Counted from the first letter of the stretch, positions 27,832 through 49,787 are shown. The stretch is DNA of 64,000 nucleotides from Longimicrobiales bacterium (GCA_050732635.1 JBOHRE010000001.1:5017-69016), one strand, 5' to 3'. A program made the numbers and translations. The notes: generated from the sequence alone by a model not told the origin.

Positions 27832-27845
27832 CGGCGCGGGAGCAG

Positions 27846-28889
27846 ATGGGCATCGGGGTCGAGGGTTCCGGCGTGGGCGTCGAACGCGGCGTTACCCTGC
27901 GCACCGAGGACCCGCGGATTCACGATCTGCCCGACGCGGCGCGCCGTGATTTTGCGGTCGTCGTGCCTGCCTATGACGAGGTCGAGAATGTGCCGGACCT
28001 CGTTCGCGAGCTGCGTGAGACCTTTCGCCGGTTTCGGCTGGACGGAGAGGTTCTCCTGGTCGATGATGGCTCCTCCGACGGCACGGCCTCGTGCGCCGAG
28101 GAGCTGACGCAGGATTGGCCGCGGTTCCGCGTGCTGCGCCACCGCCGCAACTTCGGCAAGACCGAGGCGCTGCTGACTGCCGCCGCGGCGACGGATGCGA
28201 CCTGGCTGATCCTCTTCGACGCGGACCTGCAGCACACCACGGACGAGATTCCCCGCTTCCTCGCCCAGCTCGCGGCAGGCAGCGACATCGTGACCGGCCG
28301 CAAGGTCGGGCATTACCAGAAGGCAGCGGTCTCGCGTTTGTACAACGTACTGAATCGCTGGATCTTCAAGGTTCCGGTCAGCGATCTGAACTCCATGAAG
28401 GGCTTCCGCCGTGAGGTGCTGGACGAGGTGCATCTGCGGCACGACTGGCACCGCTTCTTCGTGGTTCTAGCTTACGCCCGCGGCTTCTCGATGGATGAGA
28501 TCGACATCGAGCTGCGGCCGCGCCGGCACGGCAGCGCGAAGTACAGCAGCGGCTCGCGGATCATGGTCGGCCTACTCGACCTGATCTCCGTCGCCTTCTT
28601 TCTGCTCTTCTCGCGGAAGCCGCTGCTGCTGTTCGGCCTCAGCGGCCTGAGCCTCGCCGCGCTGGGCATGATCATCGGGCTGGTCACCATCGTACTGCGC
28701 GTGCAGCACATCGTCCTGCCGTTCGGCTACCGACCACTGCTGTACCTGGTGATCCTCCTCGAAACGCTCGGTTTCCTGCTCTTTGGTTTTGGCTTCGTGG
28801 CGGAGCTGATCGCGCAGCAGCAGGCGGACCTGGATGCCTTGCAGCGCAAGCTCGCAAGACGCCCGGAGGCATCCGAGGGCCGACGGTAG
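27846..28889 (+). CDS. GT2 polyprenyl-phosphate glycosyltransferase (GtrB/CsbB/DPM-synthase-like) with C-terminal TM helices
   Basis: VVVPAYDEVENV, LVDDGSSDGT and the FDADLQH DxD region, followed by two C-terminal hydrophobic helices. Confidence 0.7.
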   Translation: MGIGVEGSGVGVERGVTLRTEDPRIHDLPDAARRDFAVVVPAYDEVENVPDLVRELRETFRRFRLDGEVLLVDDGSSDGTASCAEELTQDWPRFRVLRHRRNFGKTEALLTAAAATDATWLILFDADLQHTTDEIPRFLAQLAAGSDIVTGRKVGHYQKAAVSRLYNVLNRWIFKVPVSDLNSMKGFRREVLDEVHLRHDWHRFFVVLAYARGFSMDEIDIELRPRRHGSAKYSSGSRIMVGLLDLISVAFFLLFSRKPLLLFGLSGLSLAALGMIIGLVTIVLRVQHIVLPFGYRPLLYLVILLETLGFLLFGFGFVAELIAQQQADLDALQRKLARRPEASEGRR

Positions 28890-28949
28890 TCATCCATTCG
28901 GCTCCGCGGGCTCGGAGACCACAGCCTCCGGGGCGGCCCGGAGACCCCG

Positions 28950-29957
28950 TCATGTCTTCGTTGCCCTGGCTCGCGTGGCGAGCAGCATGGCTGCGGCGCC
29001 CGCCAGCTCGGCCGCGATCACCCACAGGCGTGACGCAATGGCGACGACTGCCGCGACACTCGCGACCGGCAGCAGCGGCGCCAGCAGCGCAGTCATCGAC
29101 AGCTCCCGGGCACCGAGACCTGCCGGCGCGATGAAGACCAGGTAGCCGACCAGGAAGGCCAGTGCATTGATGCCGGTCAGCGCGGCCAGTGCCTCACCGG
29201 GTAACGGCGTGATCGAGGAAACGAAGAGCCACAAGGCGAAGCCGTACGCCAGCCAGTCGATCGCGGCGAGAACGAGCAGCCAGATTCCTTCCTTCCAGGT
29301 GCCCTGCCAGACCAGCGTCGAGCGGTGTACCCAGCGCGGGATGAGGCGCAGGCCGAAATTGAGCGCGGCCGGATGCACGCAGGCGGTGGCGAGCCCGAGT
29401 GCGCCGAGTAGCAGCGTTGGCCGTACGGAGGCGTCCAACCATGCGTCGGCGGGGGCCGTGCCGATCCCGACCACCGCTGCTGCGAGTACGACGATGCCGG
29501 TCTGGATGAAGAGGGACGTGAGCAATCGTGCTGGCTCGAGACCGGCGCGGCGCGCCAGCTCCGCGATGCCCACGAACTGCCACACCTTGCCGGGGATGTA
29601 GCGGACCAGATTCGCCAGGAACCAGATCCGCAGCAGAGCGCGCCAGCGGACGGGCTCGCCGGCGAAACAGCGCAGAGTCCGTGACCAGACATAGACGCCG
29701 AACACAAAGGTCGCCTCGATTGCCACCAGGCTGGCGACCAGTCGCAACGGCTGGACGGACCAGGCGAAGGGGCGCAGCCGATCCCAGTCGCGCGCGATCG
29801 TCAGGCCCAGAAAGACGAACGCGGTGGCGACGATCGCGAGCCCGAGTGTGCGGCGCAGCAGGCGCAGCCCGCGGCGGGCTGGATCCGGATCGCTCGCCGC
29901 GATGTCGCCGGGACCGGCGTCGCTCACGAGGCTGCTGCGCGTGGCCGACGCCGCCAC
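28950..29957 (-). CDS. LPG-synthase-TM / flippase-like (UPF0104) integral membrane protein
   Basis: About 8 predicted TM helices. RYIPGKVWQF and the general architecture are typical of this family. It overlaps the yfhO-like gene by 34 nt. Confidence 0.55.
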   Translation of the reverse strand: MAASATRSSLVSDAGPGDIAASDPDPARRGLRLLRRTLGLAIVATAFVFLGLTIARDWDRLRPFAWSVQPLRLVASLVAIEATFVFGVYVWSRTLRCFAGEPVRWRALLRIWFLANLVRYIPGKVWQFVGIAELARRAGLEPARLLTSLFIQTGIVVLAAAVVGIGTAPADAWLDASVRPTLLLGALGLATACVHPAALNFGLRLIPRWVHRSTLVWQGTWKEGIWLLVLAAIDWLAYGFALWLFVSSITPLPGEALAALTGINALAFLVGYLVFIAPAGLGARELSMTALLAPLLPVASVAAVVAIASRLWVIAAELAGAAAMLLATRARATKT

Positions 29958-32314
29958 GCCCCGTGGAGCAGCGCGCCGCCATATCCAGCGAGCAGAAGCA
30001 GGCCGAGCACGTGGATCCAGAAGCCGAGCCGCAGCTCGGCAGGCCCGAACTCCAGCTCGACAGTGTGCGTGCCGGATGGCACGACCACGCCCCGTAACGC
30101 ATGGTTGGCCTGCAGGACGGGCGTTTCATCCGTGTCGACATGCGCGGTCCAGCCATCGTACCACGGATCGGCAATGATGAGCAGCGCCGGCCGGTTCGAG
30201 GAGGTCTCGACGACGATACGGTCGGGCTCCGCCCGGCTCACATGCGCGCTGCCCTGAAAGTCACCGCCCTCGGGCGGGAGTCCCGGATCGTCGTATACGA
30301 ACGCGCGCTCGCGTGGATTCCAGCCTGGCTGCGTCATGGCGGCGAGCGCGCCCTGCGGCGGGTCGACCACTTCGACCGCCGGCACCAGGTAGGCGCGCGG
30401 CAGCGCCGTCAGGTTCTCGTACACGATGCCCAGCGGTCCACGGTTCGCTTCACGCAGCGCGGGCGAGTCGAGCTCTGCAGCGAGTACTAGCCAGCGGATG
30501 TTCGCGGCATCGAGGAAGACCGGGTGCTGGATGAGGTTGTGCCAGTCGACGTACCTCTCCTGCCCGGCGCCGACATACTCGTTCCAGCGCTGGAGCTGAT
30601 TGCCATGCTCGCCTCCCGCCTGTCGCACATCCCAGTGCATGAGATAGTTCGTGGCCGCGCGTGGATACGCTGCCTCGGGCGGGACGACGCCCGGAGGAAT
30701 CGCCCAGATGCGGTCATCCGCCGGCTGCGAGCGCAGGTGCTGCACGACGTGGTCTGCCGCGTACAGGCGCTCCGGCGGGTCCGTGGTCTGGAAGAAGGGC
30801 CGGCCGACGACCCACAGATCGATGACCGTGAGTGCGGCGAGCGCGATGGCAAAGACGCGCGTCGGGATGCGCGCGCCGAGCCACAGCCAGAGCAGCCCGG
30901 CGCCGGCGGCAGCGAAGAAGGCGAAGCGAAGCCAGCCGGCGGCGCGGCCGGCGTCGCCCGTCCGCGCATCCGCTCCCGCCAGGGCGGCGCCGAGCACCGC
31001 GAGTAGCGCGAGGCCCAGGAGCGCGATCCACGCGACGCCGGGCGCGGTGGTGACCTCGCGGTTCCGGGCACTCGCCGAGCGCAGCGCGTGCCGCGCCCGA
31101 GCGATCCGTTCCAGGGTCAGCGCCGCCATGATCGGGAGTGAGAAGCTGACCAGAAAGAATGCGATGTTCGGTGCGCGGAACCGCCTCGTGCCGGGCAGAA
31201 CCTCGTAGTACAGGCGGTAGAGCGGCGTAAAATCGCCGAACGAGATCGTGAGCGTGAAGAAACCGAGTCCGGCGAAGAAGAGCCAGTAACGGTCCCGCCG
31301 GGCGTACAGGATACCGAGCAGCGCGAGGCCCAGAACGGCGGCGCCGGCGTACTCGGTGTGCAGCTTGAACGGGCTATCGCCCTGGTAGGTGGGCAGGGCG
31401 GGCCGCCCCTGCTCATCCGCGATGGAAGCGCCGGCCTGTTCGGGCACAGCCAGGCCCAGCAGCTCACCGGGCGGCATCGACCATTCCGTGGCATAGTCCC
31501 AGCCGCGCCCTTCCTCACCGCCGCGCGGCGAAGCGTCGACGTAGCCGAGGAAGGGCAGGAAGTTCACCGCCGCGAGCGCAAAGCCGAAGGCGACCGCGCC
31601 GAGACCGAGGGCAAGGCGCCCGATCAGCGCGCGCGGCTGGCGCAGCAGGCCGTGACTCCAGAGCGCGAACACGGCCCACAGACCAGCGGCGAGCAGCAGG
31701 TAATACGCACTCTGGATCTGGAACGAGAGCAGCGCGAAGCCGAGGGTTGCGGCGGCCCCGAGGAATGGGCCGAACGAGCCGGTGCGCACGCCGCGGTGCA
31801 GGAAGAAGAAGAACAGCGGCGTCGACGCCGCCACGATGATGCGTCCGTCGTGCCCCGCATAGACGTAGGACAGCAGGAGCCCGGTGAACTCGAAGGCGAG
31901 TCCGGCGACGAACGCGATCCAGGGCCGCACGCCGAGCTCGCGCGCCAGCAGGTACATGCCCAGCCCGCCGAGGAAGAACGACAGCACGAAGATCGCGGGC
32001 AGGATCAACGCGACAGGGAAGAGCAGGTCCGCCAGGTGACGGAACGGATGGAATGCGCTGCCCGGATTCGCGAACAGCGGCAGCCCACCATACACGTAGG
32101 GCACCCATTTCGGCAGCGCCCCTGCAGCGAAGCGCTCCGACACGAACTCATGGAAGAAGTAGCCGCCCGCGAGGTAGTCCGTACCGAAGATATGGCGGCC
32201 CGGCAGGAACGCGGGCAGGAAATAGAGTGCTGACAACGCGAAGAACACCGCCGCCGCCCGCCCCGTCGTGATCCAGTCTGCCTCCTCCACCAGCACGTCA
32301 GCGCGTTTCGCCAA
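29924..32314 (-). CDS. YfhO-family polytopic membrane protein (putative GT-C-type extracytoplasmic glycosyltransferase)
   Basis: 796 aa with many N-terminal TM helices plus a large C-terminal soluble domain. The YfhO-like N-terminus reads FLPGRHIFGTDYLAGGYFFHEF. Confidence 0.6.
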   Translation of the reverse strand: MAKRADVLVEEADWITTGRAAAVFFALSALYFLPAFLPGRHIFGTDYLAGGYFFHEFVSERFAAGALPKWVPYVYGGLPLFANPGSAFHPFRHLADLLFPVALILPAIFVLSFFLGGLGMYLLARELGVRPWIAFVAGLAFEFTGLLLSYVYAGHDGRIIVAASTPLFFFFLHRGVRTGSFGPFLGAAATLGFALLSFQIQSAYYLLLAAGLWAVFALWSHGLLRQPRALIGRLALGLGAVAFGFALAAVNFLPFLGYVDASPRGGEEGRGWDYATEWSMPPGELLGLAVPEQAGASIADEQGRPALPTYQGDSPFKLHTEYAGAAVLGLALLGILYARRDRYWLFFAGLGFFTLTISFGDFTPLYRLYYEVLPGTRRFRAPNIAFFLVSFSLPIMAALTLERIARARHALRSASARNREVTTAPGVAWIALLGLALLAVLGAALAGADARTGDAGRAAGWLRFAFFAAAGAGLLWLWLGARIPTRVFAIALAALTVIDLWVVGRPFFQTTDPPERLYAADHVVQHLRSQPADDRIWAIPPGVVPPEAAYPRAATNYLMHWDVRQAGGEHGNQLQRWNEYVGAGQERYVDWHNLIQHPVFLDAANIRWLVLAAELDSPALREANRGPLGIVYENLTALPRAYLVPAVEVVDPPQGALAAMTQPGWNPRERAFVYDDPGLPPEGGDFQGSAHVSRAEPDRIVVETSSNRPALLIIADPWYDGWTAHVDTDETPVLQANHALRGVVVPSGTHTVELEFGPAELRLGFWIHVLGLLLLAGYGGALLHGAWRRRPRAAAS

Positions 32315-36472: not shown

Positions 36473-37072
36473 ATGGCGATCAAGGACCTCTTCTGGGCAT
36501 GCCCGTTGTGCTCCTCGCCGCAGGCTGTGCAGCGCGTTGGCCGGCACCACGCCTGCCGTGCCTGCAACGCTCGCTTCGTGCGGGGTCGGGCCGACCTGAT
36601 TCGCGCCATCCGCCGCGGCACCGAGCCGGAGGAACGGACTGCCGGCGAGTGGCTTCGGCGACTGCGCCCGATCCACCTCGACGGCGGGGAGCCGATCCTG
36701 CGCAGCCGCGTCCGCATCCGCGTCGCCGATCATGATCGGCCGGTGCACGGTGCCGGCGGCGAGTATTTGGGCCGCCACGAGGTCTTTGGGCCTACCATCA
36801 AAGGGCACCTGATACTGACCGCCGACGCGCTGACGTTCGAGCCCGACGGAACGGACGCGCCCCGCCGCTGGCCCCTCGACACCCTGACCGCCGTCGGCGC
36901 CTCGTCCTCGCTTCTACAGGCCCGCACCCGACAGGGTCGGCTCCACGAGATCCGCTTTCCCATCGCCTCTCTCCGCGTCTGGGATGAGCTGCTTCGACAG
37001 GCGCTGCGCGAACACCATCGCCGGCGCGGACGCGAGATCGTCGAGTTCCTGCCTCGCATCATCACCCGATGA
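36473..37072 (+). CDS. hypothetical zinc-ribbon protein with a PH/GRAM-like C-terminal domain
   Basis: CPLCSS...CRAC four-Cys ribbon. The later segment GHLILTADALTFEPDG...IRFPIASLRVWDELL resembles bacterial PH/GRAM folds. ATGA overlap with plsC. Confidence 0.4.
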   Translation: MAIKDLFWACPLCSSPQAVQRVGRHHACRACNARFVRGRADLIRAIRRGTEPEERTAGEWLRRLRPIHLDGGEPILRSRVRIRVADHDRPVHGAGGEYLGRHEVFGPTIKGHLILTADALTFEPDGTDAPRRWPLDTLTAVGASSSLLQARTRQGRLHEIRFPIASLRVWDELLRQALREHHRRRGREIVEFLPRIITR

Positions 37073-37755
37073 CGCTCTATCGAGCAGTCCAGGCCCTCGC
37101 CCGTCTCCTGACCCGCACCATCACCGCGGGGGATTTCCGCATGATCGGCCTCGAGAACGTGCCGCCGAGCGGGCCCTTCATCCTCGTCGCCAACCACCAG
37201 AGCTTCCTCGACCCGATCATCATTCAGGGCTTCTGTCCGCGCGTCCTCCATAGCATGGCCAAGAGCACCCAGTTCGCCTCGCCTCTTACCGGGCCCCTCA
37301 TGAAACGGCTTCGCGCCTTTCCGGCTCGGCGCTTCCAGATCGACCCGCAGTCCGTGCGCATTGCCCTGCGCCGGCTGCACCAGGGCGAGGCCGTCTCCAT
37401 CTATATCGAGGGCGAGCGGAGCTGGGACGGACGCCTCCAGGAGCCCCGCCTCGGCACCATCCGCCTCATTCTCAAGGCCGGCGTGCCTGTGGTGCCCTGC
37501 GCCATCGCTGGCTCCTACCACGTCCTGCCGCGCTGGGACAGCCGTCTGCGACGGCACCCGATTCGGGTCATCTTCGGCCCAGCGTTCCAGCTGCCCCAGT
37601 CCGACGACCGGTCCGTCCGCGAGCGCCTCGTCGAGCCCATCGGACGCCAGCTCATGGCCACGATCGGCACGCTCCTGAGCGCGATCGAGGCCGATCTCCC
37701 GCGCCAACCACTCCCTCCGGCGACAGAACCCGCGCCGAGCGCGGAGACGCGTTGA
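37069..37755 (+). CDS. plsC: 1-acyl-sn-glycerol-3-phosphate acyltransferase family (PlsC-like)
   Basis: The VANHQSFLDP (HX4D) and IYIEGERS motifs are present. Confidence 0.8.
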   Translation: MTLYRAVQALARLLTRTITAGDFRMIGLENVPPSGPFILVANHQSFLDPIIIQGFCPRVLHSMAKSTQFASPLTGPLMKRLRAFPARRFQIDPQSVRIALRRLHQGEAVSIYIEGERSWDGRLQEPRLGTIRLILKAGVPVVPCAIAGSYHVLPRWDSRLRRHPIRVIFGPAFQLPQSDDRSVRERLVEPIGRQLMATIGTLLSAIEADLPRQPLPPATEPAPSAETR

Positions 37756-37922: not shown

Positions 37923-37950
37923 AGTTGACATAATGTCTATTATGCGAAGT
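37923..37950 (+). other. dif: candidate dif (XerC/XerD chromosome dimer resolution) site: AGTTGACATAA-TGTCTA-TTATGCGAAGT
   Basis: 20 of 28 positions are identical to E. coli dif (GGTGCGCATAA-TGTATA-TTATGTTAAAT), including the inner CATAA/TTATG palindrome and an 11-6-11 layout. It sits in an AT-rich intergenic patch. Confidence 0.6.
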
Positions 37951-38041: not shown

Positions 38042-40627
38042 ATGGGCCTGGATACCTATCGACAGAAGCGGCGCTTCGACCGAACGCCGGAGCCTGCCGG
38101 CAGACTCGGCCGTACCGCGGGTGCCTTGCAGTTCGTGGTGCAGAAGCATGCCGCGCGGCGGCTGCACTATGATTTTCGGCTGGAGCTGAATGGCGTGCTG
38201 CTGAGCTGGGCGGTGCCGAAGGGGCCGAGTTACGACCCTGGGGAGAAGCGTCTGGCGGTTCACGTCGAAGACCACCCGCTCGAGTACGGGGACTTCGAGG
38301 GTGTGATTCCGCAGCGCGAGTATGGGGGCGGAACGGTCGTGTTGTGGGATCGCGGGGTTTGGGTGCCAAAGGGGGATCCGTCCGAGCAGTACGAGAAGGG
38401 GCGTCTGAAGTTCGAGCTGGCCGGCGAAAAGCTGATCGGCGGGTGGACGCTCGTGCGCATGGGCCGGCAGAACGCTGGTGAGAAGGAGAACTGGCTGCTG
38501 ATCAAGGAGCGGGACGGGACCGAACGCTCGCCCACTGAGGCGGACATCGTCGAAACGCGGCCGGAGAGCGTGGCAACCGGTCGTACGTTGGAGGAGATCG
38601 CCAGCCAGAAGGATCGGGTGTGGCGCTCGAAGGAGACGGTGACGGTAATCCCGAAGGGGCTTCCCGCGGCGAAGAAGGCCAGGCTGCCAGCGAAGACCGC
38701 GGTGAAGGCGCAGCTGGCCACCCTGGTCGATGCGGTACCCGAAGGTGACGACTGGTTGCACGAGATCAAGTTCGACGGCTATCGGCTGCTGTGCAGGCTG
38801 GAAAAGGGCGAAGCCGCGCTGGTCACGCGGAACGGCAAGGATTGGACGGAGCGCTTCGCGCCTCTGGCGCGCGCGGCGACCTCATTGGCGGCGAACGCTG
38901 CCCTGCTCGATGGTGAGGCGGTGGCGTTGAATGACAGTGGGCGCAGCGACTTCCAGCTCTTGCAGAACGCCCTCGGCGGCGGCGCGTCGCCGCTCGTGTA
39001 CTACGCGTTCGATTTGCTGCATCTCGAGGGCCACGACCTGCGTTCGGTGGGGCTGCTGGAACGCAAGCAGCTGTTGCGGGAGCTGCTCGAGCGCTCGGGC
39101 GTCGCCGGCGGGACGCTGCGCTACAGCGATCACGTGGTGGGCAACGGGCCGGCGTTTTTCGGGCAGGCCTGCGAGCTACAGCTCGAAGGCGTGATCAGTA
39201 AGCGTACGGATGCGCCCTACATCGAGGCGCGCAGCCGCACCTGGCTGAAGACGAAGTGCACACGCGAGCAGGAGTTCGTGATCGTCGGTTACACGGATCC
39301 GAAAGGCTCGCGCACCGGATTCGGCGCCCTGGCCGTGGGCTACCACGACGCGGAGGGCGAGCTCCGCTATGCCGGCAAGGTCGGAACTGGCTACGACGAG
39401 GCCACGCTGAAGGCGCTGCTGAGGCGGCTGAAGAAGCTCGAGCGGGAGGAGGCTCCGGTCGTGAACCCACCACGCGGTGGCGAAGCGCGCGGGCTCCACT
39501 GGGTCGAGCCGACACTGGTAGCCCAAGTCGCGTTCACGGAATGGACGCAGGACGACATTCTTCGGCACCCGGTGTTCAAGGGCCTGCGGGAGGACAAGGC
39601 GCCGAGCGAAGTCATTCGGGAGGCGCGGACCCCGCACCGGCGTGCGGAGCAGCAGGCGGCCGCCGAGTCGAATTCGCCACCGGCGCCCGGGCAGCAAGCA
39701 GGCCCGGAGGTCAGCCCGGAGGAGCTGACCGCGCTATTGAAGGATTTGCCGGCGATCCGGCTGACCAACCCGCAGCGCGTGCTCTTCCCTGCCGACGGTA
39801 TCACGAAGCAAGATCTGGCCGGCTATTATGCGCTGGTCGCGCGCTGGATGCTACCGCTGGTGCGCGATCGAGCGCTGACGCTGGTCCGCTGTCCCGAAGG
39901 CATCGATGGGCCCTGCTTCTATCAGAAGCACGTCGGCGAGGCAGTGCCCAAGAGCATCAAGCGCGTGCCAGTCGAGGAGGCCCGGAAGACGGGCATCTAT
40001 CTGTACGTCGATTCCGTCGAGGCCCTCGTCTCACTCGTACAGATCGGCGTGCTGGAGATCCATTTCTGGGGCTCGCGCATCGACAAGATCGAGAAGCCTG
40101 ACCTGCTGGTTCTGGACCTCGATCCGGACCCTGCTGTGTCCTGGTCACGGGTGGTCGAGGCCGCGCTCGAGCTGCGCGACCGGCTGGCTGAGCTCGGCCT
40201 GCAGTCCTTTGCTAAGACCACCGGAGGCAAGGGACTGCACGTCGTGGTTCCATTGACTCGCCGGACCGACTGGGAGGACGCCAAGGAGTTCGCCCGCGCA
40301 CTCGCCGAGGAGCGTGTGCGCCTCCACCCGAGGTCGTACACCGCAGCCGTCTCGAAGGCCAAGCGCAAGGGCAAGATCTACATCGATTACCTGCGCAACG
40401 CACGCGGCTCGACCGCGATCGCGCCGTACTCGACGCGCGCCCGCCCAGGCGCGCCGGTGGCTACACCAATCGCCTGGGACGAGCTGTCGACGCAGCTCGA
40501 CCCGGGGGCCCTTACGGTGCGGACCCTGCCCTCGCGCCTGCTCTCGCTGCGGCGCGATCCCTGGTCGGAGTACGCGACCGTGCGCCAGTCCATCACAGCC
40601 GCCGCACGAAAGGCGGTAGGTATGTAG
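38042..40627 (+). CDS. ligD: multidomain ATP-dependent DNA ligase LigD (phosphoesterase - ligase - polymerase/primase)
   Basis: The N-terminal 3-prime-phosphoesterase region has FVVQKHAARRLHYDFRLE. The ligase core has EIKFDGYR. The C-terminal LigD polymerase domain has FAKTTGGKGLHVVVP. The start is the internal ATG at 38042. Confidence 0.9.
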   Translation: MGLDTYRQKRRFDRTPEPAGRLGRTAGALQFVVQKHAARRLHYDFRLELNGVLLSWAVPKGPSYDPGEKRLAVHVEDHPLEYGDFEGVIPQREYGGGTVVLWDRGVWVPKGDPSEQYEKGRLKFELAGEKLIGGWTLVRMGRQNAGEKENWLLIKERDGTERSPTEADIVETRPESVATGRTLEEIASQKDRVWRSKETVTVIPKGLPAAKKARLPAKTAVKAQLATLVDAVPEGDDWLHEIKFDGYRLLCRLEKGEAALVTRNGKDWTERFAPLARAATSLAANAALLDGEAVALNDSGRSDFQLLQNALGGGASPLVYYAFDLLHLEGHDLRSVGLLERKQLLRELLERSGVAGGTLRYSDHVVGNGPAFFGQACELQLEGVISKRTDAPYIEARSRTWLKTKCTREQEFVIVGYTDPKGSRTGFGALAVGYHDAEGELRYAGKVGTGYDEATLKALLRRLKKLEREEAPVVNPPRGGEARGLHWVEPTLVAQVAFTEWTQDDILRHPVFKGLREDKAPSEVIREARTPHRRAEQQAAAESNSPPAPGQQAGPEVSPEELTALLKDLPAIRLTNPQRVLFPADGITKQDLAGYYALVARWMLPLVRDRALTLVRCPEGIDGPCFYQKHVGEAVPKSIKRVPVEEARKTGIYLYVDSVEALVSLVQIGVLEIHFWGSRIDKIEKPDLLVLDLDPDPAVSWSRVVEAALELRDRLAELGLQSFAKTTGGKGLHVVVPLTRRTDWEDAKEFARALAEERVRLHPRSYTAAVSKAKRKGKIYIDYLRNARGSTAIAPYSTRARPGAPVATPIAWDELSTQLDPGALTVRTLPSRLLSLRRDPWSEYATVRQSITAAARKAVGM

Positions 40628-40639
40628 CGTGGATTCGTT

Positions 40640-41386
40640 TCAGTCGCCGGTCGATTCAGCGCTGTCATCCCCGACCGACGCCGGCGCGGCTGCCGCACCG
40701 GACGCCGCCGCGGCGTCAGCCTCGCCCAGCCGCATCTCGTAGACGTCGCGCTGCGGGTTGTCGGCCTCGGTCATCTCGATGAGCCGCTGGTACAGCTGTG
40801 CGGCTCCGGCCGCATCACCTCGGGCCAGACTCAGGCGCGCGGCCGCCGCCAGTCCCTCGCGCCGCTGGTACTCGTACTCGGCGTCGTCGCCGACCGCGCG
40901 GTACAGCTCTTCCGCGCGATCCAGGTTGCCGCTCTGCTCATACGCCGCGGCACGAAGCAGGCGCGCCGTCGCCGCCAGCAACGCGTCGCCGCCGGCATCG
41001 AAATCCTCGAGTACCTCGATTGCCGCCGTCGGCTGACCCTGCTGCAGCTGGAGCTGGGCGAGCAGAATCCCCGCCTCACCAGCCGCCTGTGTGCCACCGA
41101 ACCGGTCGAGGAACGTCTGCAGGTCGCGGATCGCCAGCGCCGAGTTGCCACTCGCAGCCGTCTGCCGGATCTCCAACAGCTGGGTGACCGCCAGCTCGTC
41201 GAGTCGCGCCTGGCGGTTCAGGTAGTAGACTCCGCTGATTGCGACCACTGCGACAACGACAGCGGTAATGATGACGATACGCGCGTTGCGCCGCGCCCAT
41301 TCCGTGAGATGGACCAGCCGGGCGATGAATGCGTCATCGGCCGCTTCAGGGCGGCGCCCGCGTGCGGCCGTCGGGTGTCGTGCCAT
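40640..41386 (-). CDS. membrane-anchored TPR-like protein (YfgM-like)
   Basis: One N-terminal TM helix (IVIITAVVVAVVAISGVYY), then Ala/Leu-rich TPR-like repeats. Confidence 0.5.
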   Translation of the reverse strand: MARHPTAARGRRPEAADDAFIARLVHLTEWARRNARIVIITAVVVAVVAISGVYYLNRQARLDELAVTQLLEIRQTAASGNSALAIRDLQTFLDRFGGTQAAGEAGILLAQLQLQQGQPTAAIEVLEDFDAGGDALLAATARLLRAAAYEQSGNLDRAEELYRAVGDDAEYEYQRREGLAAAARLSLARGDAAGAAQLYQRLIEMTEADNPQRDVYEMRLGEADAAAASGAAAAPASVGDDSAESTGD

Positions 41387-41585
41387 GAAGTCTTCGGTTG
41401 CGCGGGCGACGTCTCGGCGACGCCCCGCGACGTTTGGAGGTTTTGCCAGAATCGACTATGATAGCGCGTTTTTGGCATTGCGCGCAATCTGTGCAGCGCC
41501 GGCTACTAGCGGTTTCGCCGCCTCGCCGCACCGGCGATGGGAGCCGCCTGGGAGGCTTGGCGTATCGCTTGCAGCCGCGGACCGG

Positions 41586-43796
41586 ATGGTGACGGGCAAC
41601 CGGCCAGAGCACGAGGACGTGAACAGACCGAGGAGAGGCATCCAGCGCCTGCTGGCGATGGTCAGCGGATTGGTCGTGGTGCTCGGCGGCTGCACGCGCC
41701 TGCCCACGCCGGCGACCGGTCCATTGGCGGAGTACGGGGAGTACGAAGGCCGCGAGATCGCGGATGTTGAGTTCATCAACACGGATCCGTTCGCGGCCGA
41801 CACGCTCGAGCAGCTGATCGAAACGGAGGCGACGCACTGCTCGCTGTTCGGCCTGCCCTTCTGCGTTCCCTTCACCGACTGGGGCCGGGAGGAGCGGTTC
41901 CTCGACCTGGGCACCCTTGCCAGCGATGCGGTGCGGCTGGCGGTGTTTTACCGGCAGAGCGGATACTTTGGCACGCGTGTCCGACCGGGCGTGCAAGCTC
42001 GTGGCGACCTGGTTGCGGTGAGCTTCGCGGTGTTGAGCGGCGACCCCATCCTGCTCGACTCGCTGACTGTCGTCGGCACCGAAGGCATCCTCGATCCCGA
42101 CTCGCTGGTTGCGACGCTGCCCTTGCAGCCTGGCGCGATCTTTCACATCGGTGAGTTCTTCGCTTCGGCCGACACGGTGCTGAGCGCCCTGCGCGAGCGT
42201 GGGTACGCCTACGCGGAGCTGCTGCGCAACTACGGCGTGGACACGCTGCGCGACCGTGCGAGCGCCGAGCTGGTCGCGTTACCCGGGCCGCGCGTGATCG
42301 TGGACTCGATCATGGTCGTGGGCGCGAACAGCCTCGGTCGGAAGGCGACGCTGCGGCAGCTGGAGTTCAGGGAGGGCGATGTGCTGCGCGCGAACCGGCT
42401 CGTATCGAGCCAGCGCAACCTGTACCTCGTTGATCTCGTGCAGTTCGCGACGGTCGAGGTGGCGCCCGACTCACTGCAGGCGCAGCCAGGCGACAGCACA
42501 CGAGCCACGGTTCTGGTCACCGTTTCTGAAGGTCCCGTACACGTGGTGGAAGCGTCGGCGGGGTTCGGCAAGATCGAGTGCTTCCGTGTGGAGTCCGATT
42601 GGGTCAGCCGCAGTCTTCGAGGTGGCGGTCGACGGCTCGCCATCCACGGCGAGATGTCGAAGATCGGTCTGGGTGAGCCGACGCATCTCGGCAGCGTCGA
42701 GTCGTTCTGCAACGCGTTCGAGGGTGATGAGTTTGGCCGCGATCTCGATCACCGGTTGGCGGCGGATTACACGCAGCCGGGCTTTCTGAGCCCGCGCAAC
42801 GAGCTGGTCGCGACGATCTTCGACGAACGGCTTTCCGAGCCGGGACTGTTCCAGCGAGAGGCAACTGGTGGCCGCCTGGGCGTGGTCAGGCGGCTGCGCA
42901 CAGAGGATGTGATCAGCGGCGGCGTGAACGTGGAGCGAGGCAGGACCGGGGCCAAGCCCGCCTTTTTCTGCCTGGCGCTCGCGGTCTGTCAGCCCAGCGA
43001 TATCCTGCAGCTGTCCGGAGATCGCTGGCGCAACTCGCTCAATGCGACAATCGTGCGCGATCGCACGGACTCGCAGCTGAACCCGACACGCGGCTACCAG
43101 GTGCGCATGGACGCCGGCTGGGCGGCGCCCTGGCTGCGCTCCGACGTGCAGTTTGTCCGTTGGACCGGTGATATGGCCCGCTACACCAGGGTGCGCCGCA
43201 ACTGGATCGGCGCCGGGTATCTGCGGCTCGGCAGCTTCTTCGGCACGGCAACGGTCGTATCGGATCCGGGCGACCCGGACTTCCTGCCGCCCGAAGAGCG
43301 CTTCTTTGCCGGTGGACCGACCAGCGTACGGGGCTACGATCGCAACCAGCTCGGGCCCGGCGTGTGGATCGTGCCGCAGGCGCCGGATTCCGCGGCGCCG
43401 GTCCCTGACCCCGAGGCCGAGCCAGTGTTCGTCCCGGTCGGCGGAACCTCGGTGCTGGTGGGCAGCGTTGAGCTGCGCTTCCCTTCCCCCTGGCTCCGGC
43501 GTTATCTGAGCATGGCCACGTTCATCGATGCGGGTGCCGTCGGTACAGGCGAGCTCTGGGACATCGGGCTGGGCGAGCTGCGCGTGACACCGGGCTTCGG
43601 GATTCGCATCGCGACCCCGGTCGGTCCTGCCCGGCTCGATATGGCCTACAACCCTCACCGCCTGACCGCGGGACCGTTGCTGGTCACGAATCAGGAAACC
43701 GGCTCACTCTTCCGCGTGCGCGACAGCTTCCGGCCTGAAGGCGTGAGTTTCTTCGAACGCCTCAAGCTCCACGTTGCCGTGGGGCACGCTTTCTAG
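41586..43796 (+). CDS. tamA: Omp85-family outer-membrane protein, TamA/BamA-like
   Basis: Lipobox-like LGGC, POTRA-like repeats and a C-terminal surface-antigen barrel (FFAGGPTSVRGY...). It lies immediately upstream of tamB. The start is uncertain (41586 or about 41659). Confidence 0.75.
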   Translation: MVTGNRPEHEDVNRPRRGIQRLLAMVSGLVVVLGGCTRLPTPATGPLAEYGEYEGREIADVEFINTDPFAADTLEQLIETEATHCSLFGLPFCVPFTDWGREERFLDLGTLASDAVRLAVFYRQSGYFGTRVRPGVQARGDLVAVSFAVLSGDPILLDSLTVVGTEGILDPDSLVATLPLQPGAIFHIGEFFASADTVLSALRERGYAYAELLRNYGVDTLRDRASAELVALPGPRVIVDSIMVVGANSLGRKATLRQLEFREGDVLRANRLVSSQRNLYLVDLVQFATVEVAPDSLQAQPGDSTRATVLVTVSEGPVHVVEASAGFGKIECFRVESDWVSRSLRGGGRRLAIHGEMSKIGLGEPTHLGSVESFCNAFEGDEFGRDLDHRLAADYTQPGFLSPRNELVATIFDERLSEPGLFQREATGGRLGVVRRLRTEDVISGGVNVERGRTGAKPAFFCLALAVCQPSDILQLSGDRWRNSLNATIVRDRTDSQLNPTRGYQVRMDAGWAAPWLRSDVQFVRWTGDMARYTRVRRNWIGAGYLRLGSFFGTATVVSDPGDPDFLPPEERFFAGGPTSVRGYDRNQLGPGVWIVPQAPDSAAPVPDPEAEPVFVPVGGTSVLVGSVELRFPSPWLRRYLSMATFIDAGAVGTGELWDIGLGELRVTPGFGIRIATPVGPARLDMAYNPHRLTAGPLLVTNQETGSLFRVRDSFRPEGVSFFERLKLHVAVGHAF

Positions 43797-43798
43797 CG

Positions 43799-46700
43799 AT
43801 GCCGGTCAAACGCTTTCGCCGGTGGGTCACTGCATCGCAGGGTCGCGCGATCGCCGCGGGCATCGCCGCGATCGTGGTGGCGGTCGTGCTCATCATCGCC
43901 GTGGCCGTGACTCGCGACGACGCCGATCCAGCCATCCCTGAAGACGCTCTGGAGGCGGACTCGCTGCTGATGGACCAGCCGGCACTCGAGCTGGAGGCGA
44001 CGCGCGACGAGGTGGGTGGCTTCGAGCAACGCATCGCCGAGCGGCTCGCAGCCCGGCCGGCGCCGACCGGCGAGCTCGGCCCGGTGCTACGCGTGCGTCT
44101 GGCCGACGTCGATTGGCGCGACCGGGCGGGCCGGCCGTTCCTGCTCGCCGATGTCGCCGTTGCGCGCATGGACCATGACGCGTTCAAGGCCGGCCGCGTG
44201 GTGTTGTCCGACGTGACGCTCGAGGCACCACGAGTCCTGCTCGTTCGCGAGACGCCGAACGCTCAGTGGAACTACATACCGGTGCTTGGCTTCGACAGGC
44301 CGCCTCGAGCGCCGCGCGCCGCCGATGAGTTGCGCGGCTCTGCCGAGACCGGCGTATTCGTGCGCGCGCTGACCATGCGCAATGGCCGGGTCGAGATCCG
44401 GCTGCCGACCGAACGCTATGTGTTCACGGATCTCGCTGGCCGGGTCCCCGCGATCGACCTGCCCTCGGGCAATCGGGCTGCCGAGATCCGCATAGCAGCG
44501 CTCGAGTCCACGCTGGAGGTGCCGGCGGAGGATCGCGTGCTGCCCTTTGCCATCGCTGACGCCCGCTTGCTGCTCCCGGGCGGACGCGTCGACTTCACGA
44601 TCGGCGACGCCCGGCTCGCCGATACGCGCCTCGCCGCGCTCGAGGGCACCTGGGATCCGGATCTGCCGGGGCTCGGCCTGCGTGCAAGCGGCTTCGTCGA
44701 GCGCGTCGAGCTGGCCGACATCCGCTTCCTGTACGCCGATCTCCCCGAAGAAGGCACGGCCAGCTTCGCCTGGCGCATCGAGCCCACGGCCGCAGGCAAC
44801 GAGGTGACGGTCCGGGATCTGGCGTTGAGCTCCGGTCCGAACAGCGTTGCAGGCACCTTGGCATTCCGCTTCGGGGATGCTGGCTTCGCACTCGGGTCGC
44901 TCGATCTGCAGCTCGAGCCGCTGTCATTGGAGCTCGTCGAACGATTCCTCGATGAGCCGCTACCGTACACTGGCACGTTGCGCGGACGCGTCTATGGGGA
45001 CGCGGCCGCGCTGCGCTTCGACCTGGCCGCCGCCGTGCGTGCGCGGGGCACGGATCAGGACCTACGCACCGACGTGACCGGCCTGGCCGCGCTGGACAAC
45101 GGGGGGTTTCAGCTTCGCCGGCTGGAAGCGGATCTGCGGGACGCGCCGCTGGTTGCGCTGCGAGGGTTCCTGCCCGGCCTCCCCGTCGCCGGCACCATCA
45201 CGGGTCGGGTGACGCTGCTCGGACCGCCTGGCGAGACGCCGCTGGATGTCGACGTCAGCCTCGAACTGGCCGGTGGCACCGCGGCTGTGCGTGGTACGCT
45301 CGATCTCACGGGTGCCGTCATCGTGTATGATTTGACCGGCAGCCTCCTCGCGGTCGATCTGCAGCAGCTGGTGGAGCCGAGCGTGCCCCCGATCCTGCTC
45401 ACCGCCGAGTTTGCGCTGGCGGGAAGCGGAACCGATCCCGAGACCGCTGACGCGAGTCTTTCGCTCCGCGGCGATTTCGCCGGCTGGCAGACGGCGCCCG
45501 CTGACCATGTCGATCTGCGCGTTCGCCTCGCGGGCGGAATGCTGAACGTCGATACGCTGGACGCCGTCGTGGGCCCGCTCGCAGCCGAAGTGAACGGGGT
45601 TTGGGCGACGCGCGCCGATCGTGACGCCCCGGGACTCTCCTACCGCGTTGCAGTGACGACCCTGGCGCCGCTGGCTCCGTATCTGCCCTTCATCCCGGAG
45701 GACGCGACGGCCGGTGGTGCCGTCGATCTCGCAGGCCAGCTCCGTGGCAGTCTACAGCGGCCACAGTTCGTCGGTGACATGCAGCTCCGCGAAGTGCGCT
45801 ACGGTGATTGGGCGGTGGGTGCCGCCGAAGGGAGCTACGATGTCGCCCTCGGCGATAGCATCCCCGTGATTCATGTCGCGCTCGGCGCTCGCGGCATCGA
45901 GACGCCCACTGCCGGTGCCTTCGAGGCAGCATCGCTCGATGTGGCAGTGAGTCGCCCAACATTCAGCCTGGTGGGCCGCTTCGACAGAGTCATCGGCGGC
46001 GTCGGTGAAATCGAGCTCGAAGGACGCTTCCTTGATGCCGGTGCGAACGAAGCCGTCGTGCGCCACCTGCTCGTCGACCTGGGCGAGGACCGTTGGTCGC
46101 TTGCCGAGCCGGCACTCGTCACTTGGGGTGGTGTGCCTGGCGTGGTGGTCGAGGATCTGTTGGTCGAGTCCACGACCGGCGATGGTGAGCTGGCTCTCGG
46201 CGGCACTGTTTGGCCACTCGCCGATGCGGACGTTCGCTTCCGCCTCCGCGACCTGCCTGCTGGCGAGCTGCAGCAGATGCTCGGGCAGGAGCCCGTGCTG
46301 AGCGGTCGCATCTGGGCGGAGGGGTCGATCGTCGGCGGCGAGGCTCCCGTTGTGCTCGCCGATTTCCGCGTCGCGAACGGCAGTCTGCAGACGGTCGCAT
46401 TCGAGCTGCTCGAGGGCGCTGTCGAGTACCGTGACACGCGCGCCGACCTCACGCTCGATGCTGTGCTGGCGCCGGGCGGCCGGCTCGTCGCGGACCTCCA
46501 GCTGCCCGTCCTGTTCCGACTCACCGACGATCCCTCTTTCGGCTGGGCCGAAGCCGGAGCCCTCGCTGGAACGATCGAGGCCGACTCGCTGCCGCTTCAG
46601 CTTCTGTCCAATCTGCTGCCGCAGGTGCGCGATCCGGAAGGTTCGGCCGCGGGACGTGTGGTCCTGGCCGGCAGCGCTGCCGCCCCCGAGTTCCAGGGTG

Positions 46701-48013
46701 CCCTGCAGCTGACCGGCGGCGCATTCACGTTGCCGGCGCTGCGCCAGCGCTATACCGGCATCGAGGGGACGCTCAGCCTTGCCGACGAACGCGTAAGTGT
46801 CGATGACATCGTGATCCGGAGCGACGGCACGGCTCGCCTCAGCGGATCGATCGTTTTCGAGCAGCTCGATCGACCCATCGCGGACCTCGAGGTCGTGCTC
46901 GAAGGCTTCCGGCCGCTGGGAGTCGGGGATGTGGACCCGGCCGCAGTTTGGGGCACGCTGAGTGTGGACGGGCCGTTCAGCGCGCTCGTTCTCGGCGGCG
47001 ACCTGCGCGTCGATGACGGCACCATCGAGGTGCCCGACTTCGGATCGGACCCGTTCAGTCAGGAGATGCGCGACTTCGTTGAGGCCGGCGGCGACGCGAC
47101 CGCGGGGCTCGACGAGCCGGAGGGAGGCCTCGATTACGACATCCGTGGCATGACCGTGCGTTTTGGCAGCGCGACCTGGTTCGTCGTCAACACGCCGGAG
47201 ACCAGCGATGCGCGCGTTCAGCTAGGCGGTGAGCTGACGTTGTTCGGCTCCGGCGACGACCTGCGGATCTTCGGCACGCTCAGCGGCGAGCGCGGCACGT
47301 TCACGCTGACCGCCGGCCTGCTCGTGCGCCGGTTCGAGGTGCGCGAGGCGCAGATCCGCTTCTTTGGCGAGGCGGATCCCAACCCGCAGATCGATATCAT
47401 CGCCTCGCGCACGATCTACACGGCCGCGGGCGAGGAGATCGAGGTGCTCGCCAACGTGACGGGCACGGCCAGTCGGCCGCGCCTCTCGCTGGCGACCGCT
47501 CAGGGCACACAGATCCCGGAGTCCGAGCTGCTCAGCTTCCTCCTGTTCGGCCAGCCGAGTGGCGCATTGGGTGGCGGCCTGACCGGCACCGAGCAGCTGC
47601 TCGAGAGCACTCTGCTCGGTGGTCTCGCCGACTGGTTCACACTCGGTCTGGAGGAAGCCTTCATCGAGGAGCTCGGGCTCGACTACTTCCAGCTTCGCTT
47701 CGCCCAACCCACGCTCGGCGGCATCGGCGGCATCTTCGAGCAGCCCATGCTCGTCTTTGGCAAGGAAGTGAGCAGCGACGTTTTCCTGCGTGTGACGACG
47801 GGACTCGGCGGGCTTCTCGGCGCCTCCGCATCCTTCGAGGACGCATTCGGCATCGCCATCGAGTGGCGCATTGATCGGGAATGGCGTCTCGAGGGCGGCA
47901 TCGAGCCGACAGTGCGGCGGCGCCTCAGCCCTTTCGGTATCCGCCTCAACACGCCACTCTCCAATCCGGACATCCAGTGGTTCGTCGACCTGCGCCGGCG
48001 CTGGACGTATTGA
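43799..48013 (+). CDS. tamB: translocation and assembly module protein TamB (DUF490)
   Basis: 1404 aa with an N-terminal TM anchor, a long beta-rich body and a C-terminal DUF490-like segment (ESELLSFLLFGQP...). Confidence 0.8.
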   Translation: MPVKRFRRWVTASQGRAIAAGIAAIVVAVVLIIAVAVTRDDADPAIPEDALEADSLLMDQPALELEATRDEVGGFEQRIAERLAARPAPTGELGPVLRVRLADVDWRDRAGRPFLLADVAVARMDHDAFKAGRVVLSDVTLEAPRVLLVRETPNAQWNYIPVLGFDRPPRAPRAADELRGSAETGVFVRALTMRNGRVEIRLPTERYVFTDLAGRVPAIDLPSGNRAAEIRIAALESTLEVPAEDRVLPFAIADARLLLPGGRVDFTIGDARLADTRLAALEGTWDPDLPGLGLRASGFVERVELADIRFLYADLPEEGTASFAWRIEPTAAGNEVTVRDLALSSGPNSVAGTLAFRFGDAGFALGSLDLQLEPLSLELVERFLDEPLPYTGTLRGRVYGDAAALRFDLAAAVRARGTDQDLRTDVTGLAALDNGGFQLRRLEADLRDAPLVALRGFLPGLPVAGTITGRVTLLGPPGETPLDVDVSLELAGGTAAVRGTLDLTGAVIVYDLTGSLLAVDLQQLVEPSVPPILLTAEFALAGSGTDPETADASLSLRGDFAGWQTAPADHVDLRVRLAGGMLNVDTLDAVVGPLAAEVNGVWATRADRDAPGLSYRVAVTTLAPLAPYLPFIPEDATAGGAVDLAGQLRGSLQRPQFVGDMQLREVRYGDWAVGAAEGSYDVALGDSIPVIHVALGARGIETPTAGAFEAASLDVAVSRPTFSLVGRFDRVIGGVGEIELEGRFLDAGANEAVVRHLLVDLGEDRWSLAEPALVTWGGVPGVVVEDLLVESTTGDGELALGGTVWPLADADVRFRLRDLPAGELQQMLGQEPVLSGRIWAEGSIVGGEAPVVLADFRVANGSLQTVAFELLEGAVEYRDTRADLTLDAVLAPGGRLVADLQLPVLFRLTDDPSFGWAEAGALAGTIEADSLPLQLLSNLLPQVRDPEGSAAGRVVLAGSAAAPEFQGALQLTGGAFTLPALRQRYTGIEGTLSLADERVSVDDIVIRSDGTARLSGSIVFEQLDRPIADLEVVLEGFRPLGVGDVDPAAVWGTLSVDGPFSALVLGGDLRVDDGTIEVPDFGSDPFSQEMRDFVEAGGDATAGLDEPEGGLDYDIRGMTVRFGSATWFVVNTPETSDARVQLGGELTLFGSGDDLRIFGTLSGERGTFTLTAGLLVRRFEVREAQIRFFGEADPNPQIDIIASRTIYTAAGEEIEVLANVTGTASRPRLSLATAQGTQIPESELLSFLLFGQPSGALGGGLTGTEQLLESTLLGGLADWFTLGLEEAFIEELGLDYFQLRFAQPTLGGIGGIFEQPMLVFGKEVSSDVFLRVTTGLGGLLGASASFEDAFGIAIEWRIDREWRLEGGIEPTVRRRLSPFGIRLNTPLSNPDIQWFVDLRRRWTY

Positions 48014-48031
48014 CCCTTCGGCAGGGCCCGC

Positions 48032-49774
48032 ATGATCGTCGCACTCGCTTCGCTGCTCCTCCAGACCGCCGCCATGGCGGGGCCACACGCCGACTCGCTC
48101 GTGCGCGAAGCACGCCGCTTCGAGCGCGTGTACGAGCGCAGCGTCCGTTGGCACGCCCCACTCAGCCGACGCGGCGTCGCGCGCGACGGGTGCGATGAGA
48201 TCGTCGGCCGCTTCTGTTTGTTCTTCGATGGCGACGATGACGAATCCCCGATCCAGCCCGAGCCCATCGCGATCACCGGTGCTCGCCGCGCCGCCGTGAA
48301 TGCGCTGCGGCGAGCCTTCGGCGCCGCACCGGAGCACTCCGCCGTGGCGGCAGCACTCGTCCGCTACCTCGTCGAGGACCAGCGCGGCGCAGAGGCCGCC
48401 GCGGCGGCCCGCGCCTACATCTGGGCCAGCGCCGACACCGCATTCGGATCGATGCTGCTCGGCTTCGCGCTGCACGCGGCGGGTGACATTGTGGCAGCCG
48501 ACTCGGCGTTTACTCGTGCACTCGCGCTCATGCCACCGGACACAGTCCGGGCGATTGACGATGTGTCCTACCTGCTCGAACGTGACGAGCGCAGCCGCTA
48601 TCGCGCCCTGAGCGACGCCGATCGCGCCGCCTATGAACGGCGACTGTGGCACCTCGCCGACCCACTCCAGATGCTGCCGGGCAACGCCGCACGCACCGAG
48701 CACTACGCGCGGGCCGTATGGATCCGCCTGCTGCCCGAGGCGCCCTGGGTGCGCGGTATGATCTCCTGGCGCGCCGATCTCGCCGAGCTCACCGTGCGCT
48801 ACGGCGTGCCGATCTCCAGAGAACGCATCGCCGGCAGCTTTCGGGCCGACCTCGATCTGCTGGAACGCTACGACACGGCGCAGGTGACGCTGGTGCCGGC
48901 CGCCTTGCTTGGCGGCCAGGCGCTGAGCACGCCGGATCCCGGTGAACCGAGCCCGCTCGATCCGCCGCACCCGCGATCCGGACAGTCCCCCACCGACGTG
49001 CGTCGCCTGCTCTGGCTGCCGCACCAGCTCACTCGCTTCCCTGGTGCGCGCGGCGATCGTACCGTCGTGCGCGTCGATGCGGCGATGGCCCTCGATTCGC
49101 TCGCGCGCGATGCCGATAGCATCCGCGTGGCCCTCTTTGTCCTCGACTCCGCCTCACTCCGCATCGTTGCCGAGTCCCAACGAGGAGTCGCAGTCCGGGC
49201 GGACACGACGGCTTTTGCCCTCGAAGCAGAGGTCGGCCCCGGGAGCTACGTCTATCGCGTCGAAGCCTTCGAGCCCGAAAGCCGCCTCGCGACTCGTGCG
49301 CTGCATTCTCTGGCGATCGTATCGCCGCTCCCGCCGATCGCGCTTTCCGATCCGCTGATCGCACGACCCTTCGCTGGCTCCGCCGTGCCTGCGCAGCGAC
49401 GCGATCCAGCGTTGCGGCCGCGCGTGGAGTTGATCCTCGAAGCCGGCGCGTCGATCGGACTGTATGCCGAGCTCGTGAACCGGAGTGTACCGGCAGCCCA
49501 CGCGATCGAGCTCTCCATCGCACGCGAATCGGCCCACAGCCTGCCCGGCCGCGCCGTGCGTTGGATCGGTCGAGCCCTCGGCCTGGGCGCTGCCGACGCC
49601 GCACCGATCATCCGCTGGGAGGCCGCCGTGGACCGCCCACGCATGCCGCTCGCCGTGGATCTGGCCTTGCGCGATCTGGACGCCGGCCTCTACCGCATCA
49701 CCCTGCGCGTCGGCGACGGGACGAGCACGCTGGCCGAAACCTCGCGCATCGTTCGCATTGCGCAACGGCGCTGA
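48032..49774 (+). CDS. secreted hypothetical protein, possible GWxTD-domain family
   Basis: Signal peptide. RRLWHLADPL...NARTEHYARAVWI...ISWRADLAELTVRYGVP resembles the GWxTD motif context. This is a memory-based call. Confidence 0.35.
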   Translation: MIVALASLLLQTAAMAGPHADSLVREARRFERVYERSVRWHAPLSRRGVARDGCDEIVGRFCLFFDGDDDESPIQPEPIAITGARRAAVNALRRAFGAAPEHSAVAAALVRYLVEDQRGAEAAAAARAYIWASADTAFGSMLLGFALHAAGDIVAADSAFTRALALMPPDTVRAIDDVSYLLERDERSRYRALSDADRAAYERRLWHLADPLQMLPGNAARTEHYARAVWIRLLPEAPWVRGMISWRADLAELTVRYGVPISRERIAGSFRADLDLLERYDTAQVTLVPAALLGGQALSTPDPGEPSPLDPPHPRSGQSPTDVRRLLWLPHQLTRFPGARGDRTVVRVDAAMALDSLARDADSIRVALFVLDSASLRIVAESQRGVAVRADTTAFALEAEVGPGSYVYRVEAFEPESRLATRALHSLAIVSPLPPIALSDPLIARPFAGSAVPAQRRDPALRPRVELILEAGASIGLYAELVNRSVPAAHAIELSIARESAHSLPGRAVRWIGRALGLGAADAAPIIRWEAAVDRPRMPLAVDLALRDLDAGLYRITLRVGDGTSTLAETSRIVRIAQRR

Positions 49775-49787
49775 ACCGATCCCTCGA

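Follow-up and report, generated by a model that had tools for sequence, protein, structure and literature searches.

A probable chromosomal dif site and replication terminus region in a Longimicrobiales (Gemmatimonadota) genome

Introduction

The locus described here raises the question of whether a short AT-rich patch, in the intergenic DNA that separates a plsC-type acyltransferase gene from the NHEJ ligase D gene ligD, is the place at which a Longimicrobiales bacterium resolves its chromosome dimers, and whether the terminus of replication lies nearby. A preliminary description of the 64-kb stretch of DNA that was analysed (hereafter the window) had proposed the patch as a candidate dif site, citing its likeness to E. 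coli dif and an apparent flip in the polarity of the octamer GGGNAGGG, the KOPS of E. coli, and had suggested that the replication terminus may lie in the window. We conclude, with a probability of roughly 0.9, that this member of the Gemmatimonadota has its chromosomal dif in the 28-mer at 37923-37950 and that the replication terminus region falls within the window. The patch itself is almost certainly a dif site. The real support for this reading comes from comparative data, that is, from other genomes, rather than from the count of motifs in the window.

In the accessible literature, the earlier record for the phylum Gemmatimonadota consists only of a predicted dif in Gemmatimonas aurantiaca. 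The present analysis extends, computationally, both the E. coli-type KOPS and the classical XerCD-type dif to the order Longimicrobiales. It also fixes the replichore boundary of an uncultured Longimicrobiales genome, which aids the checking of MAG assemblies, the orienting of contigs and the reading of strand bias.

Materials and methods

Related loci were retrieved through homologues of the GT2 polyprenol monophosphomannose synthase encoded at 35673-36452 of the window, yielding ten 20-kb loci (L173-L182) that represent seven non-redundant lineages. For the wider family of sites, the arm pattern TTCGCATAA-N6-TTATGTCAA was scanned against one genome per species (185,579 species), giving at least 120 loci. 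Motif polarity was ranked for every octamer, with or without a single internal N, in 217 kb of sequence pooled from the relatives and the window.

Results

Position and sequence of the site

The site and its immediate neighbours are as follows.

37923..37950, minus strand: probable dif site, 28 bp, reading ACTTCGCATAA-TAGACA-TTATGTCAACT (XerC arm, centre, XerD arm); single locus in the window, position weight matrix (PWM) score 46.9 bits, conserved in relatives
37923..37933, minus strand: predicted XerD-binding arm TTATGTCAACT, on the plsC side; 9/11 identical to the E. coli XerD arm TTATGTTAAAT and assigned by analogy to E. coli dif
37934..37939, minus strand: predicted 6-bp central (strand-exchange) region TAGACA; 3/6 identical to the E. 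coli centre, with the first two and the last positions invariant in relatives
37940..37950, minus strand: predicted XerC-binding arm ACTTCGCATAA, on the ligD side; 8/11 identical to the E. coli XerC arm and likewise assigned by analogy
37069..37755, plus strand: plsC-type acyltransferase gene, the conserved left neighbour of the site
38042..40627, plus strand: ligD (NHEJ ligase D), the variable right neighbour of the site

The 28-mer had been reported with the correct sequence and coordinates, and it is the sole match to itself in the window even when three mismatches are allowed. It has the 11-6-11 layout of a dif site, with imperfectly inverted arms and the inner palindrome CATAA/TTATG. Its plus strand, AGTTGACATAATGTCTATTATGCGAAGT, is identical to E. 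coli dif at 20 of 28 positions, as had been counted, but the reverse complement also scores 20/28, and as judged from its sequence the minus strand is the biologically meaningful orientation. The site lies 92 nt upstream of the ligD start codon in a spacer of 286 bp (37756-38041), one base pair shorter than the 287 bp first given, and ligD begins at 38042. In a window whose G+C content is 68%, and in which a 28-mer contains on average 9.0 A/T (sd 2.4), the site has 19/28 and its best overlapping frame 20/28, a tie for the most AT-rich 28-mer of the window. The patch had also been called the only strongly AT-rich one in its neighbourhood, a slight overstatement, since patches of 18/28 occur at 33448 and 35666. 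Rfam and tRNA scans returned nothing at the site.

A family of related sites in other bacteria

The arm pattern matched at least 120 genomes, mostly with one site in each. Among the matches listed, sites from beta- and gamma-proteobacteria have a centre close to TGTATA and an arm ending in AAAT, while those from Myxococcota, Binataceae and similar lineages have an arm ending in CAACT like that of the window site; one further site lies on a complete Longimicrobiales chromosome. We regard the pattern-matching sites as genuine dif because, among the matches listed, GGGNAGGG points toward them in 210 of its occurrences and away in 14 when 8-kb blocks are counted (64:6 for the Myxococcota-like sites and 146:8 for the others). 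A PWM built from 120 pattern sites, scanned across the window, places the site as the unique top locus at 46.9 bits, the next unrelated locus scoring 8.6, and the extended region of 78 kb likewise has no second site.

At the level of genes, comparison of the window with the 120 pattern loci by blastn and tblastx revealed a gene shared with only one of them, the GT2 polyprenol monophosphomannose synthase of the complete Longimicrobiales chromosome (OZ251497.1). There the gene is 54% identical to that of the window and lies 2.7 kb from a dif-type site, TGTTCGCATAATATATATTATGTCAAGT, in the same relative orientation. This site is at 1,658,302 of 3,332,892 bp, or 49.8% of the record as counted from the record start, which need not be the origin; GGGNAGGG is absent from the 8 kb around it. 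We rejected the record positions of pattern sites in complete genomes as a test for an antipodal location because record starts are not tied to the origin. Janthinobacterium lividum PAMC 25724 was matched twice, on separate contigs, one match being on a 12-kb contig and having a divergent centre and end (TTAACA...CAATT); this second site may mark an IMEX junction or belong to a plasmid. Scanning metagenomes with TTCGCATAATANNNATTATGTCAA gave 50 loci of varied origin, and in their proteins none of these was related to the window.

Two published predictions bear directly on the assignment. The dif predicted by Kono et al. (2011, Table S1; PMC3025954) for Gemmatimonas aurantiaca T-27, AATGCGTATAATACATGTTATGTAAACT, comes from the same phylum and is identical to the window site at 21 of 28 positions, including CG.ATAAT and TTATGT.AACT, and the Longimicrobiales relatives share with it the arm TTATGTAAACT; it differs in belonging to the Gemmatimonadales rather than the Longimicrobiales, and in a centre and outer XerC-arm positions unlike those of the window. 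The same table (PMC3025954) predicts GGATCGCATAAGAAACATTATGTCAACT for Sorangium cellulosum. This Polyangiaceae type of site is identical to that of the window at 23 of 28 positions and at all 11 of the XerD arm, and the Myxococcota-like pattern sites share the convergence of GGGNAGGG noted above, but it belongs to another phylum and its centre starts with G (GAAACA, GATGCA) where that of the window starts with TA.

Conservation in Longimicrobiales relatives

All ten of the related loci carry exactly one dif-like site, in the same (minus) orientation, 38-517 nt past the stop codon of plsC. Between 17 and 21 of the 22 arm positions match the window site. In an alignment of these spacers the 28-mer is the only conserved block, the flanking sequence being unalignable, and the invariant positions read CG.ATAATA...ATTATGT.AA; the XerD arm contributes an invariant TTATGT.AA and the XerC arm an invariant CG.ATAA, with outer positions of the latter varying among relatives. 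Their central regions are TATACA, TACACA, TATGCA or TATATA.

The site is kept after plsC whether ligD, ku and ligD, or neither lies downstream, within a gene order that is itself kept: a glycosyltransferase cluster, the GT2 gene, a hypothetical gene, plsC, the spacer, the variable NHEJ genes, a TPR gene, tamA and tamB. Core genes of the region (the fab/acpP cluster, rpmF, ndk, sucCD, rpoN, tamAB, der, plsY and gpsA) also hold their order across genera, and the contigs that bear the locus in the relatives measure 1.7-5.4 Mb. The terminus neighbourhood of this clade is thus unusually syntenic, running from xerD through some 22-26 kb that end in plsC to dif, the optional ku/ligD and tamAB.

Seven of the related loci (L173-L177, L181 and L182) also share, on the plsC side of the site and some 24 nt away from its XerD arm, the inverted repeat GTGGAGAAC...GTTCTCCAC (alignment columns 101-135, between plsC and dif). 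It is absent from the window and is probably the hairpin of a plsC terminator.

Polarity of GGGNAGGG around the site

A recount of the octamer in the window returned the eleven matches of the preliminary description, with coordinates and strands exactly as given there.

4179..31398, plus strand: left-arm GGGNAGGG matches pointing toward the site, starting at 4179, 12239, 19067, 20657, 21303 and 31391
40524..59073, minus strand: right-arm GGGNAGGG matches pointing toward the site, starting at 40524, 43481 and 59066
13982..13989, minus strand: off-polarity match GGGTAGGG, inside what looks like a window-specific 2.1-kb insertion
59427..59434, plus strand: off-polarity match GGGAAGGG, on the right arm

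Nine of these matches point toward the site and two away, so that the reported flip is real as a count, but by itself the count is only suggestive (p ~0.07; two-sided binomial p 0.065, Fisher p 0.088), and the eleven occurrences are no excess over the 9.2 expected by chance. The variant GGGCAGGG taken alone is distributed 6:0 toward the site. Extending the same genome by 14 kb (78 kb in total) gives 10:2 for GGGNAGGG, with one further match, toward the site, 2.1 kb left of the window start. Gene calls bear out the earlier remark that the matches at 31391, 40524 (in ligD) and 43481 (in tamA) lie on the non-coding strand of their own genes. A de novo search for polar octamers confined to the window proved powerless, its top motifs being codon-driven and GGGNAGGG ranking 854 of 13,805.

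It is in the relatives that the polarity becomes decisive. The seven non-redundant lineages give 52:3 toward the site, and four single loci are fully polar (7:0, 8:0, 9:0 and 11:0). When the window is added to the pool, GGGNAGGG heads the polarity ranking of 27,705 octamer patterns (61:5, p 2.6e-13, skew 0.92), while permutations of the same composition stay near 1:1. The signal persists when adjacent clusters are collapsed (54:5 pooled) and is found on both arms (42:2 on the left and 19:3 on the right, window and seven relatives together). It reflects an excess of about threefold on the strand pointing toward the site (61 observed against 17-22 expected) together with depletion on the other (5 against 11-23). 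The best polarity split includes the site in seven of the eight genomes, and the split intervals of these seven intersect between -46 and +1296 nt from it; the exception is L179, whose best split lies 4-5 kb to the right.

Neither base skew nor coding strand explains this polarity. On the right flank of the relatives, the GGGNAGGG matches lie on the C-rich strand, and local GC skew favours the opposite one, which is G-rich because ligD, tamA and tamB are plus-strand genes; matches that run against the local base skew cannot be produced by it. Since the relatives are syntenic, some KOPS matches may be inherited rather than independent; the offsets of GGGNAGGG differ between loci, and individual loci are significant alone.

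A second polar motif, GGAGAAGG (29:1), which resembles the B. subtilis SRS GAGAAGGG, was rejected as an artefact, its matches clustering at 6-nt spacing some 9-12 kb left of dif in several relatives. In the window they sit at about 26570-26597, where the coding sequence of gene 26374-27831 has a low-complexity AAGGAGAAGG repeat, and they occupy homologous positions in the relatives. The spurious signal is thus due to a low-complexity repeat in a conserved gene, which by synteny we take to be rpoN.

Close to the site, several relatives have an exact GGGNAGGG 46-66 nt from the XerD arm (at -46, -61 and -66), pointing at the arm. In the corresponding plsC-dif spacer of the window, the plus strand of 37797-37863 contains three to four direct repeats of GGCAGGTCCG, twice in the form GGGGCAGGTCCGG, 15-17 nt apart. 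These GGGGCAGGT-type repeats match KOPS at seven of eight positions and point at the XerD arm; they might serve FtsK as a loading site near dif, or be there by coincidence. We regard as improbable the reading that FtsK of the Gemmatimonadota recognises the exact gamma-proteobacterial KOPS and has dedicated loading sites within about 70 nt of the XerD arm. We also observed an overlapping triple KOPS, GGGCAGGGCAGGGGAGGG, in an intergenic position of L181 (about 3481-3510), directed toward its dif 8.6 kb away to the right, and similar doublets in L174, L176, L177 and L179.

GC skew and gene orientation

From the left edge of the window the cumulative G-C curve climbs to a plateau at 31-47 kb, where it peaks near 47 kb; after this it declines over at least 25 kb, past the right edge and 9 kb further. 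The sign of the skew therefore changes inside the window, as would be expected of a terminus there, but the apex is a plateau and there is no sharp switch at 37.9 kb. Gene orientation behaves similarly: it does change from mostly plus to mostly minus, as had been described, with nearly every gene left of 28.9 kb on the plus strand and every gene from 49.8 kb onwards on the minus strand, but the change occupies a mixed zone (28.9-49.8 kb) and not a point at 37.9 kb.

Both the skew apex (about 47 kb) and the strand switch (49.8 kb) thus lie some 9-12 kb to the right of the site, an offset that we attribute to ligD, tamA and tamB, plus-strand genes that would be transcribed head-on to replication. 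A gene-level regression returned equal coefficients of 0.022 for replication and for coding strand, its fit being flat over about 30-47 kb, so that the skew switch is placed no finer than that interval. Kono et al. (PMC3025954) found distances of 0-1.39% of genome length between dif and the skew shift point, and the 9 kb between site and apex falls inside this range. As the site marks the convergence of the replichores, the replication terminus region is placed in the window. The sole RNA gene detected in the window is a tRNA-Arg (CCT) at 61058-61131 on the minus strand.

A XerD recombinase in the same region

11093..11986, plus strand: gene of the tyrosine recombinase XerD (TIGR02225 equivalog), 25.9 kb from the site

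The XerC/D-family recombinase of the preliminary description is real and can be assigned more closely. Its product scores 372.9 bits against TIGR02225 (XerD; cutoff 329.6) and 323.7 against the XerC model, below the cutoff of 335.15. It has a Phage_integrase and a SAM-like N-terminal domain in Pfam, its translation ends in the active-site tyrosine segment QIYTHV, and at 100% identity it matches the NCBI entry XerD [Longimicrobiales bacterium]. On this ground the window is assigned to the chromosome of an uncultured member of the Longimicrobiales. Neither XerC nor FtsK was seen among the window genes examined. In E. coli XerD, whose tail we take to be LRQLHQQ, the reported contacts with FtsK-gamma are presumably RQ..QQ, and these positions read RE..RK in the XerD of the window.

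Discussion

We suggest that the site is a well-supported, ordinary example of a known system, and one that leaves the understanding of chromosome dimer resolution unchanged. The dif reading draws support from resemblance to a family of sites across bacteria, conservation in relatives and the convergence of GGGNAGGG, and also from the nearby xerD and the change of skew sign. In the paradigm established in E. coli and V. cholerae (PMC5357621), the system would work here as follows. Homologous recombination would fuse sister chromosomes into a dimer; XerC and XerD, by analogy with E. coli and Vibrio cholerae, would bind the ACTTCGCATAA and TTATGTCAACT arms that flank the 6-bp crossover region; and the septal DNA pump FtsK would load on GGGNAGGG, oriented toward dif on both chromosome arms, translocate to the XerCD-dif complex and activate XerD to begin strand exchange. 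Two sequential strand exchanges across the 6-bp centre would then resolve the dimer. Binding of the arms and dependence on FtsK are ascribed to this organism by the same analogy, as is the expectation that XerC and FtsK are encoded in its genome.

The likeness to the E. coli system extends to the common 28-bp, 11-6-11 layout, to the inner CATAA/TTATG palindrome and to an encoded XerD equivalog. The differences are the phylum, a centre of TAGACA where E. coli has TGTATA, and an XerD arm ending in CAACT and not TAAAT. The KOPS of E. coli is the same octamer, and in the clade, too, it points toward the site on both arms; on the strand pointing toward the site its pooled density is about 1 per 3.5 kb, higher than that of E. 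coli (about 1 per 12 kb), and its pooled skew of 0.92 compares with E. coli values of 0.91 genome-wide and 1.0 near dif (PMC3384302).

Could the site resemble dif by chance and be in truth an operator or promoter of ligD, or of plsC? It is intergenic, close to the ligD start, AT-rich and partly palindromic as many operators are. Yet it is kept at the same position in the relatives (L177-L182) that lack ligD and in which the next gene is a convergent TPR gene, which rules out a ligD operator. Identical arms recur in unrelated phyla and gene contexts, neither a sigma-70-like promoter nor an intrinsic terminator was found in the plsC-ligD spacer, and an operator would leave the convergence of KOPS unexplained. 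We consider such a reading largely refuted and exceedingly improbable. Mobile elements of the IMEX type insert beside dif, and Xer-type sites also occur on plasmids. The site might therefore be the attachment or junction site of such an element, or the place where a plasmid or secondary replicon resolves its dimers, and not the main chromosomal dif; the content on the XerC-arm side does vary among relatives (ligD, ku and ligD, or nothing), and attachment sites such as those of CTX-phi, VGJ-phi and the gonococcal genetic island (difGGI) likewise combine a common dif-type sequence with variable adjoining genes. Unlike those sites, however, the one in the window has no paired degenerate copy, either in the window or in its extensions (a 78-kb region), and no phage or conjugation genes; the gap between the ligD stop and the gene that follows is a mere 12 bp. 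Its neighbours are housekeeping genes in an order kept across genera, the megabase-sized contigs of the relatives do not suggest a plasmid, and KOPS polarity and GC skew are those expected at a chromosome terminus. We hold this origin to be very improbable.

A subtler possibility grants that the site is a true dif and supposes that the forks normally meet elsewhere, so that the terminus here is one of segregation (KOPS/dif) polarity only. The displacement of the skew apex by about 9 kb, to 47 kb, and of the strand-bias switch to 49.8 kb would fit such a case, and how the position of dif relates to the place where forks really fuse is a standing question in the literature, which Kono et al. examined explicitly (PMC3025954). 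Against it, coding strand and replication affect the skew equally, the three large plus-strand genes that follow the site on the right can alone displace the apex, and the offset is well within published dif-to-skew distances (PMC3025954). A fusion point away from the dif site is, in our judgement, improbable, and we retain the reading in which the chromosomal dif and the terminus region coincide in the window.

The variable genes next to the XerC arm deserve a comment of their own. Four lineages have ligD alone (the window, L173, L174 and L176), one has ku and ligD (L175), and three have neither (L177-L182); the insertion point is exactly between dif and the convergent TPR gene. The ku/ligD cassette might have been gained or lost through Xer-mediated events at dif, or might be functionally coupled to the repair of terminus DNA broken at septum closure, both of which we regard as doubtful; no second dif-like half-site was found at the variable ku/ligD loci.

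The position of xerD is another feature of the clade. Kono et al. (PMC3025954) reported that xerD is usually origin-proximal and xerC dif-proximal. In this clade, by contrast, xerD is found 22-26 kb away from dif: the distance is 22 kb in two relatives (L186/L173 and L187/L174) and 25.9 kb in the window, with the gene context shared by all three. Directly after xerD in the window comes a segment of about 2.1 kb (11987-14100), delimited by (GGTTGGT/GGTTCGT)n repeats in inverted orientation (11997-12028 and 13941-14044). It contains an orphan ORF (12881-13933, minus strand) with no Pfam or NCBIfam match. In the two relatives the segment is absent and a GATase gene directly follows xerD, so that the segment looks like an insertion specific to the window.
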